64,000 bases of DNA. It comes from a virus. Shown piece by piece: positions 22,970 to 24,097 of the stretch (position 1 is the first letter of the stretch; every line of letters begins with the position of its first letter). The stretch is from positions 66,398-130,397 of IMG/VR virus record IMGVR_UViG_3300042261_001186; one strand, 5' to 3'. The notes under the pieces are model-generated. The model did no database searches. It was not told the origin of the DNA and worked only from the letters and a program-made list of their open reading frames with translations. The translations under genes were made by a program, and so were the position numbers.

Positions 22970-22998
22970 AAAAAACCCCCTTAATTGGGGGTTTTTTT
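22970..22998. terminator. bidirectional intrinsic terminator
   Basis: A-run CCCCC TTAATT GGGGG T-run between convergent genes. Confidence 0.85.
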
Positions 22999-24097
22999 AT
23001 TTCACCAAATTCTTGAATATCGCTTCTAAAACATTAACAACTATTGAATTTCCTGCCAATTTTATTAATGCACTATCACTCATAGTCCCTTCAACTTTAT
23101 TAAAATCACTATCTGTGAACCCCATTAATTTCCAACATTCTCTTGGTATAAGTTGTCTTACTTCACCATTTTCATAAACCTTTATTCTAGATAATGCACC
23201 AGTTGCAGTTATAGTTGGAGATATACTATCAGTATGATAAACCTTATTTTCACTTGCAAAATTTGTATAACCAACTAAATCAAATCCTCTTATACCATTC
23301 TTAGTTTTTTTAGTTTCTATTACACTTGGATAATATTTCTTAAAATCAAAATAATATTTCTTATCAACATTTTTAGACATAATATCACCAATAGTTAAAT
23401 TAGTTAATTCATTTTGTTCTGGAATAATATATTCTTGATCATCTATTATAGAAACCATATAAGCTCTTTCTCTATTCTGTGGTATATCAAAATAAGAAGC
23501 TTTCAATTTGAAATCATAATTCCTATATCCTAATTTTGTGAGATTCTCTTTCCAAGTTTCAAATCCTGTTTTGTGTTTATCACTCATTATTGATGCGACA
23601 TTTTCCATTAATAAATATTTTGGTAATCTATTTTCAACTTTTAATTCATTAAGTAGTCTATCTACTTGCCACAATAAAGAACTTGATTTACCTTCAAATA
23701 AACCTCTACCACTTCCTTGGTTACTTAAATCCTGACATGGAAATGAATATGTTAATAAATCATGGTCTGGCATATCAGTTGATTTGAAATCTAATATGGA
23801 ACCAAGATTGTTTATGTTTTTATTAGAGACATAAAGTTTCTTTGCTTTTTCAAAATTCATTTTATCAGTATTTGTAGGTGTTTTAGTATCTAAAGAAAAT
23901 GTAAATTTTTTAAGATAATCATATATTTCTTCTTTTGAATCTGTAGTTTCTTCATATGAATGATGGACAAGGTTATATGACATTATGGCATTGACATCCC
24001 ATTCTGATACTGCAACTACTTCAAAGTCAGCTTTTATATTTTTAAGTGCTTTGTGTTGAGAACCAATACCAGCAAATAATTCAATTACTTTTATCAT
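22997..24097 (-). CDS. DNA (cytosine-5) methyltransferase, M.SssI/M.MpeI-like (predicted CpG-specific)
   Basis: FAGIG, YSFPCQDLS, LPKYLLMENV, QNRER, GNSI; target-recognition region LVGYTNFASE..VY....SPTITATGALSRIKV resembles M.SssI as recalled. Confidence 0.9.
   Translation of the reverse strand: MIKVIELFAGIGSQHKALKNIKADFEVVAVSEWDVNAIMSYNLVHHSYEETTDSKEEIYDYLKKFTFSLDTKTPTNTDKMNFEKAKKLYVSNKNINNLGSILDFKSTDMPDHDLLTYSFPCQDLSNQGSGRGLFEGKSSSLLWQVDRLLNELKVENRLPKYLLMENVASIMSDKHKTGFETWKENLTKLGYRNYDFKLKASYFDIPQNRERAYMVSIIDDQEYIIPEQNELTNLTIGDIMSKNVDKKYYFDFKKYYPSVIETKKTKNGIRGFDLVGYTNFASENKVYHTDSISPTITATGALSRIKVYENGEVRQLIPRECWKLMGFTDSDFNKVEGTMSDSALIKLAGNSIVVNVLEAIFKNLVK

Follow-up and report, generated by a model that had tools for sequence, protein, structure and literature searches.

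The stretch of viral DNA analyzed here (the window) comprises 64,000 nucleotides, positions 66,398 to 130,397 of IMG/VR record IMGVR_UViG_3300042261_001186, and forms the second half of that 130,397-bp record, which is labelled G000 below. Two convergent genes are found side by side in it. The first, on the minus strand at 22997..24097, encodes a carbon-5 (C5) cytosine DNA methyltransferase of 366 amino acids, assigned to the CG-specific M.MpeI/M.SssI type by its PF00145 match, its match to M.MpeI, and its base-contact residues. The second, on the plus strand at 22152..22967 and called gene X, encodes 271 amino acids and is a candidate PD-(D/E)XK nuclease on the basis of its conserved residues, weak fold matches, and linkage to DNA methyltransferases. 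Between the stop codons of gene X (22967) and of the methyltransferase (22997-22999) lie 29 bp, which are filled by a bidirectional hairpin at 22970..22998 that resembles an intrinsic terminator and consists of an A-run, a C-run, a loop, a G-run, and a T-run. It is the only terminator-like site in 21900-24400, for which shuffled sequences gave a mean of 0.5. Carrying the methyltransferase goes with the loss of CpG in the G000 lineage, an association supported by the comparison with close relatives, and the methyltransferase and gene X together probably make up a phage restriction-modification-like module whose nuclease is predicted.

The methyltransferase had been recognized in an earlier, sequence-only reading of this DNA from its motifs, and profile searches agreed with it: the complete open reading frame (ORF) matched PF00145 with an E value of 1.2e-60 (206 bits against a cut-off of 22) and TIGR00675 dcm with an E value of 5.2e-49 (167.6 bits against a cut-off of 100.65). 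Its translation contains FAGIG, PCQ (with C121), ENV, QNRER, and GNS, which we take to be C5-methyltransferase motifs I, IV, VI, VIII, and X, respectively, and the variable-region strings quoted in the earlier reading, KKTKNGIRGFDLVGYTNFASENKVY...PTITATGALSRIKV, are present in it. C121 was invariant in 101 of the 101 homologues of 340-420 amino acids among the 120 matches listed. The ORF is the sole PF00145 match in G000, and the best PADLOC model for it was “orphan methyltransferase” PDLC03728 (1.6e-66). Among solved structures, the best match was M.MpeI of Mycoplasma penetrans (4DKJ, 8C56-8C59) with an E value of 7e-63 over residues 2-364, a full-length match that includes the variable recognition domain, followed by HhaI with 3e-28. 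The gap was wider for a profile of 45 homologues than for the single sequence, with 1.6e-103 for M.MpeI and 6.7e-43 for HhaI.

The base contacts of M.MpeI are known from its complex with DNA. As described in the part of PMC10899764 drawn on here, Gln141 takes the place left by the flipped cytosine and forms a bond with the orphan guanine, Phe302 intercalates, and Ser304-Glu305 read the non-substrate C, with Glu305 bonding the cytosine of the other strand. The backbone NH of Ala323 reads the guanine O6, held by Gly322, Ser325, and the pocket of Phe302, Ser304, and Glu305, and the same part lists Q141, F302, S304, E305, G322-A323, S325, and R326 as the residues that read CG. In the alignment with M.MpeI all of these base-contact residues were kept in the phage enzyme, as Q127, F280, S282, E283, G300, A301, S303, and R304. 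Within recognition loop 1, F280, S282, and E283 align to F302, S304, and E305 of M.MpeI, and within recognition loop 2 (Gly-Ala-x-Ser-Arg), G300, A301, S303, and R304 match G322, A323, S325, and R326. Across the 45 closest homologues F280, S282, G300, and Q127 were invariant and E283 and A301 occurred in at least 90%. The M.MpeI-like loop pattern was present in about half of the 101 homologues, and the remainder, at 42% identity or less, carry an unrelated recognition domain. Nine of 80 bacterial loci had M.MpeI-like loops, all in genomes titled as Mycoplasma-type (Mollicute), and a glutamine equivalent to Q127 was found in 9 of these 9 and in 0 of the 71 others.

Membership of the predicted enzyme in the CG-specific M.MpeI/M.SssI group is thus well supported by homology. 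The M.SssI-like CpG enzyme proposed in the sequence-only reading holds through the M.MpeI match and the contact residues; the comparison was made with M.MpeI only, and the likeness to M.SssI comes by way of a statement in PMC5944983, in the part used here, that M.SssI closely resembles M.MpeI. The phage enzyme also shares with M.MpeI a CpG-poor carrier genome, as is reported for M. penetrans in the part of PMC11282364 that was available to us. It differs from both Mollicute enzymes in that its carrier is a large freshwater phage rather than a Mollicute and in that its neighbor is a candidate nuclease, although the group's best PADLOC model bears the label “orphan”.

The region 4694-6802 had been singled out as nearly free of CG, and it contains 1 CG against 28 GC dinucleotides. 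The deficit is not confined to it: CpG observed/expected was 0.269 over the window (331 CG), and over the whole record the symmetrised rho* was 0.226 for CG, 1.221 for TG/CA, and 0.675 for GC, a genome-wide CpG deficit with the TpG/CpA excess that the earlier reading had anticipated. At codon boundaries 270 CpG were observed against 832 +/- 20.5 after synonymous-codon shuffling, a ratio of 0.32. The loss is therefore not an artefact of codon usage, and a CpG level near 1 after codon correction is ruled out. The 16 NCGN words all reached only 0.12-0.38 of their expected counts, and their second-order Markov ratios (0.75-1.20) left no context outstanding; because the loss is so even, the deficit lies at the level of the dinucleotide and not of a longer site. 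Two short islands of normal CpG remain, at 20.0-21.5 kb and 42-45 kb. The methyltransferase gene holds 2 CpG where 19.3 are expected and gene X holds 2 where 13 are expected, so that both genes were either long exposed to the erosion or derived from an equally eroded source.

A search with the portal protein identified 80 related viral loci with a median CpG of 0.625. The 19 portal relatives of at least 80% identity (80-93%) had neighborhood CpG values of 0.59-1.01 at GC contents of 26-31%, compared with 0.275 in the same neighborhood of G000. One of these relatives, G003, is a sister genome of 243 kb that is rated complete and whose portal is 90% identical to that of G000. Its whole-genome rho* was 0.966 for CG and 1.067 for TG, with other dinucleotides near the G000 values, and profile and sequence searches of G003 found no C5-methyltransferase, Vsr, or gene X. 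In an alignment of 35.8 kb between the two genomes, 614 CpG of G003 corresponded in G000 to CA (217), TG (108), AG (77), CT (66), and CG (51), while 43 CpG sites of G000 were changed in G003 in the reverse direction. At 37 sites that are CG in at least 70% of at least four relatives, G000 still has CG at 18; of the 19 sites that changed, 13 read CA or TG.

Since close relatives without a C5-methyltransferase keep their CpG, the loss in G000 goes with carrying the methyltransferase. A point that weakens this association is that, although PF00145 was found in 0 of the 29 records obtained through the portal, 28 of these are fragments (CheckV 1-72%), which makes the absence firm for G003 only. Other phage records that carry methyltransferases of the G000 clade are CpG-eroded as well, with 0.182 in G027 and 0.153 in G028. 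The relatives of these two records showed CpG values of 0.33-0.54 compared with 0.18-0.30 in the methyltransferase carriers, a contrast that fits a loss linked to the methyltransferase and that is given little weight, as the relatives are 1-14% fragments and already CpG-poor. With the helicase of G027 as query, only G027 itself was found.

Gene X had no match in Pfam (E <= 0.1), PHROGs, PADLOC, or NCBIfam, and 24 relatives besides itself (25 rows) were found among 1.84 billion representative proteins. The residues D70, K85, E173, S243, R245, N252, and C253 are invariant in this family and position 83 is D or E, so that the gene has a motif of the D...ExK type. Its AlphaFold (AF2) model was obtained with a predicted local distance difference test (pLDDT) score of 92.3 and a predicted template modelling (pTM) score of 0.90. 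Alignment of the model with VIA-align placed MspI first (Z 5.8, 185 residues), followed by HinP1I (Z 4.8, 178 residues) and R.HhaI (Z 4.5), with many further PD-(D/E)XK nucleases among the structural matches. MspI (CCGG) and HinP1I (GCGC), the top full-length structural matches, cut CG-containing 4-bp sites. They have in common with gene X the acidic...acidic-x-Lys motif and a position beside a cytosine methyltransferase. They differ from it in that there is no sequence similarity, the match is one of overall fold, and the partner methylases of gene X would modify all or most CG and not one 4-bp site. In the ESM Atlas the nearest clusters, those of phage PDDEXK_15 endonucleases, scored 0.90 with 153-155 features in common, and we treat them as no more than a lead.

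Several of these results weigh against a nuclease. All of the structural matches, MspI included, lie below the caution line of Z 8, a Foldseek search of the model against the PDB returned nothing at E <= 1e-3, and a search of the family profile against PDB sequences gave nothing meaningful. Genomic context is stronger evidence for gene X than the fold matches are. Gene X was linked to a DNA methyltransferase in 7 of the 8 contexts with enough flanking sequence (G000, G027, L290, L291, L294, L297, and LR756501), a count in which L295 and L296 are taken as one context, not linked, and five short contigs are left out. The pair seen in G000 recurs in G027, an otherwise unrelated record in which the methyltransferase is 70% and gene X 34% identical.

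In the other linked contexts the partner is a different enzyme. Relatives of gene X adjoin an SPPY-type PF01555 methyltransferase, located directly downstream, in four metagenome contigs (L290, L291, L294, and L297), and the 735-kb phage LR756501 (L315, LR756501.1 487824-528564) has the same arrangement. The PF01555 methyltransferase beside gene X matches the catalytic domain of N4CMT, the enzyme of the bdelloid rotifer Adineta vaga (8S9M/8S9N/8S9O), at 1.8e-73, and it shares the SPPY motif with it. It is an N4 and not a C5 enzyme, and there is none in G000 (0 PF01555 matches), where the C5 enzyme holds the partner position. N4CMT prefers CG, in the form (a/c)CG(t/c/a), according to the part of PMC10406627 referred to here. 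Gene X thus has cytosine methylases of two chemistries as neighbors, each of them related to CG enzymes, as would be expected of a nuclease that is checked by CpG methylation. The N4CMT-like phage methylase may hint at what sort of donor supplied the rotifer gene. Gene X and the methyltransferase are separated in L290 by a LAGLIDADG homing endonuclease, and in L297 a Dam-like D12 methylase comes next.

The linkage is tempered by three observations. The five N4 contexts (L290, L291, L294, L297, and LR756501) carry methyltransferases that are about 80% identical, so that they are related and not independent; L295/L296 has gene X without a methyltransferase within 7.9 kb; and G032, a relative of G027 at 94% identity, retains the methyltransferase but has no gene X. 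Comparison of L318 (G027:25056-28871) with L311 (G032:39463-43314), from records that are 91-94% identical, showed a clean 1.24-kb indel after the methyltransferase stop, which contains a 100-amino-acid gene and gene X in G027, with about 14 bp in its place in G032. Because this indel is clean, gene X behaves as a separable cassette. Gene X was not found in the +/-10-kb flanks of nine Mollicute loci. Two further genes were seen in G027, a gene for an Mrr_cat-like nuclease (L020 7639-8241) at 2 kb from the methyltransferase, with a weak E value of 2.9e-4, and a second, shorter C5-methyltransferase frame at G027:36234-37070.

The sequence-only reading had seen in the methylase a protection of the phage against host restriction at CG-containing sites. 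That role was not borne out: paired with its own candidate nuclease, the methyltransferase is probably not a lone anti-restriction enzyme. A parallel is found in the chlorella viruses, whose restriction-modification pairs are thought to cut host DNA and spare viral DNA. Both cases concern a large DNA virus with a short-site cytosine methylase and a nuclease, the latter being predicted here; they differ in host domain and in enzyme families.

Taken together, the observed enzyme family, contact residues, lineage-specific CpG loss, and gene linkage are best accounted for by a CG-specific methyltransferase that would methylate the phage DNA, forms a module with gene X, and over time causes CpG decay by deamination of 5-methylcytosine (5mC), with Vsr added later; we regard this sequence-based explanation as probable. 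From it we infer a series of steps. The methyltransferase would methylate the phage's own DNA at every CpG, a specificity predicted from homology. Gene X would cut DNA that lacks CpG methylation, be it of the host or of a rival phage, with the phage DNA protected. Under long-term CpG methylation 5mC would deaminate to T and CpG would turn into TpG/CpA where tolerated, leaving the approximately 23% of expected CpG that remain. Vsr, a T:G mismatch nicking enzyme gained later, would slow this decay. More speculatively, gene X may represent a new family of phage endonucleases blocked by CpG methylation of either chemistry, in which the partner, 5mC in G000 and G027 or N4-methylcytosine (4mC) in LR756501 and the four contigs, decides the fate of CpG; we see this as possible, though doubtful.

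The codon classes of G000 and G003 bear on deamination as the main cause. NCG codons fell 5.1-fold from G003 to G000, from 0.091 to 0.018 of NCN, and NCA rose in all four NCN families of G000 but not in control families. Third-position C before G dropped from 0.233 to 0.046, also 5.1-fold, with no fall before A, C, or T. For the CGN codons of arginine, in which transitions alter the amino acid, the share among arginine codons decreased from 14.4 to 8.0%, a 1.8-fold fall. Such a distribution is in keeping with deamination of 5mC on which purifying selection has acted as a filter.

The main competitor is loss of CpG by selection, in which CG sites are targeted by host restriction, by methyl-dependent (Type IV) host nucleases after methylation, or by the phage's own gene X product on newly replicated unmethylated DNA; the methylase would then either add a further protective layer or be among the causes of this selection. 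We consider it rather unlikely, although a number of observations speak for it and against deamination. The CGN codons of arginine, which have no silent transitions, are still down 1.8-fold; 77 of the 563 changed CpG became AG, which requires a transversion; and the share of T among changes was 0.646 at CpG cytosines, barely above the 0.566 at other cytosines, in a comparison of genomes that are about 75% identical with sites near saturation. By a crude measure non-coding DNA is less CpG-depleted (0.65) than coding DNA, with much of this coming from the two CpG-rich islands. The Prochlorococcus phage P-TIM68 (L316, KM359505.1 120427-161083) had a CpG rho* of 0.134 over 40.7 kb, a stretch with an N4CMT-like gene (41% identity) and no C5 enzyme. 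Strong CpG loss is therefore possible in a phage without 5mC, whose deamination cannot be invoked there; S-CAM22, with a similar N4CMT-like gene, had a CpG of 0.62.

On the other side, an even loss over the 16 NCGN contexts is ill-suited to the avoidance of particular restriction sites, and the classes with silent transitions are 5-fold down compared with 1.8-fold in the non-silent class. The five contexts that combine gene X with an N4 methyltransferase keep CpG at 0.59-0.97 (0.59-0.97 in the contigs and 0.874 in LR756501), compared with about 0.2 in the genomes that combine it with a C5 enzyme, which shows that avoiding the sites of gene X alone does not strip CpG. When the codon-class test was run on P-TIM68 against S-CAM22, the CGN codons of arginine fell 3.9-fold and the other classes 5-6-fold, a flatter pattern than that of G000 obtained with a rough test and a distant baseline; by this run the test is a rough discriminator only. 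Deamination of 5mC is thus favored over selection as the cause of CpG loss in G000, though not proven, and the methylation-driven loss put forward in the sequence-only reading stands as far as the loss goes with the gene, with deamination not cleanly separated from selection.

It could further be that the methyltransferase targets a longer CG-containing or another site and that the CpG poverty has an unrelated cause. Recognition loop 2 has L302 where M.MpeI has N324, the sole change in this loop, and engineered changes of loop 2 altered the specificity of M.MpeI, so that the loop can be re-engineered to new specificities (PMC10899764, in the part cited above). Of the 101 homologues, 24 have Q at this position, 15 have N, and 10 have L. 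Methyltransferases that are 47-52% identical to that of G000 (L021 in G028, L004, and L005) carry clearly different recognition loops, from which it follows that specificity has shifted within this clade; the flanks of these three are still poorer in CpG, at 0.11-0.14, so that either their enzymes also act on CG or something else strips CpG there. Such a change of target is improbable for G000, in which every residue that contacts bases or holds the contacting backbone is kept, the loop signature and Q127 define one coherent group with the Mollicute enzymes, and the deficit is at the level of CG in all contexts. Least probable of all is that the CpG poverty mirrors host composition or low GC content with the methylase incidental to it: low-GC bacterial flanks without this enzyme type do show CpG values of 0.31-0.8 and the portal median indicates that a mild deficit is common in the phage group, but the closest relatives at the same GC content and the complete sister genome retain far more CpG than G000, and other dinucleotide biases are alike in G000 and G003.

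A Vsr-type T:G mismatch endonuclease of 155 amino acids is encoded on the plus strand at window positions 43970..44437. It matched PF03852 with an E value of 1.8e-24 (85.8 bits against a cut-off of 27, and 87 bits in the genome search) and the PADLOC Vsr model with 1.3e-11. The gene has a GC content of 43%, contains 28 CpG where 20 are expected, and is located 19.9 kb from the methyltransferase. Searches of 31 related records and of G032 gave no Vsr match above the cut-off, and Vsr accompanies the C5-methyltransferase only in G000; it was not found with the closest methyltransferase relatives in G027 and G032, both of which are fragment records. Because it is confined to G000 and CpG-rich, Vsr is probably a late arrival. 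In Escherichia coli, Dcm and Vsr are linked through very-short-patch repair of the T:G mismatches caused by the C5 methylase. As there, a C5-methyltransferase and a Vsr-family nuclease occur together in the G000 genome, and G003 has neither; unlike there, the genes are far apart and do not overlap, and Vsr is CpG-rich whereas the methyltransferase gene is eroded. Of the methyltransferase-Vsr pair about 20 kb apart that had been suggested for this DNA, the Vsr itself is real and shares its absence from G003 with the methyltransferase, while its composition and its lack in G027 and G032 tell against a long-standing pair.

Whether cytosine methylation causes CpG loss in prokaryotes is disputed, with M. 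penetrans on one side and surveys without a general link on the other (PMC11282364, in the part available). G000 and G003 offer an unusually clean contrast in this respect, with 90%-identical portals and the same GC content, a CG methylase and a CpG of 0.23 in one, and no C5 methylase and a CpG of 0.97 in the other. A limited full-text search, which lay outside the supplements of PMC8885841 (its phage methyltransferase list) and PMC10899764, found no phage-encoded CG-specific C5 methylase tied to phage CpG loss. In phages, CG-wide methylases may act as the protecting partner of a nuclease within a module and not as stand-alone anti-restriction enzymes, and the mutational cost of such a module may depend on whether it uses 5mC or 4mC. 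If the pairing of gene X with either chemistry holds, the two kinds of carrier (CpG of about 0.2 compared with 0.6-1.0) would provide a natural experiment on what 5mC costs in mutations, and gene X would serve these phages as a weapon directed by CpG at the unmethylated DNA of hosts or rivals; the rotifer enzyme may derive from the same phage group. A new, predicted CG-dependent nuclease and a phage CpG methylase unlike M.SssI and M.MpeI could also be useful as enzymes.

G000 has a CheckV completeness of 100%; terminal repeats are absent, so that the record may be incomplete, which is a reservation for the whole-genome statements above. Its phage genes include those for a portal, a head maturation protease, a helicase, and RtcB, as well as a DNA polymerase in two separate ORFs. 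The polymerase family matches fall at G000 37621-39132, outside the window, and at window positions 54032-55717 on the minus strand, about 80 kb apart, which suggests a split polymerase. G000 is contained in metagenome runs with freshwater and lake-water labels. The stretch was found in three runs, one of them from a second study, with 0 differences between the contig pieces compared, and the junction of gene X and the methyltransferase is covered by run contigs (record 4 of run X1 and records 13 and 14 of run X2). A megablast search of window positions 1-25000 against GenBank phages returned a single match of 530 bp, in LR756501/LR756503, and there is thus no close cultured relative.

A transfer-messenger RNA (tmRNA) is encoded on the plus strand at window positions 20736-21135, within an ORF-free stretch at 20062-21400. 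It was identified by Rfam RF00023 (69.9 bits, E 1.5e-26) and by ARAGORN, with the tag peptide GKNQIL, and its stretch has normal CpG, with 29 observed and 29 expected. Five related records gave no tmRNA match above the cut-off, and no tRNA genes were found in the window. A profile search of G000 gave 0 matches to PF01555 or PF02086 and thus revealed no methylase of the Dam type or of the N6/N4 kind. Among short words of G000, CATG was well below subword expectation with a second-order Markov ratio of 0.42, GATC had a ratio of 0.64, and CGCG had one of 2.87 on 14 copies. The pair of methyltransferase and gene X is located within a stretch of about 35 kb of G000 whose ORFs, with few exceptions, lack a counterpart in G003. 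The small ORFs that flank the pair (window positions 21401-22050 and 24155-24951) have a common ...E(N/D)IEW(V/F) tail, with the stop overlapped by the next start.

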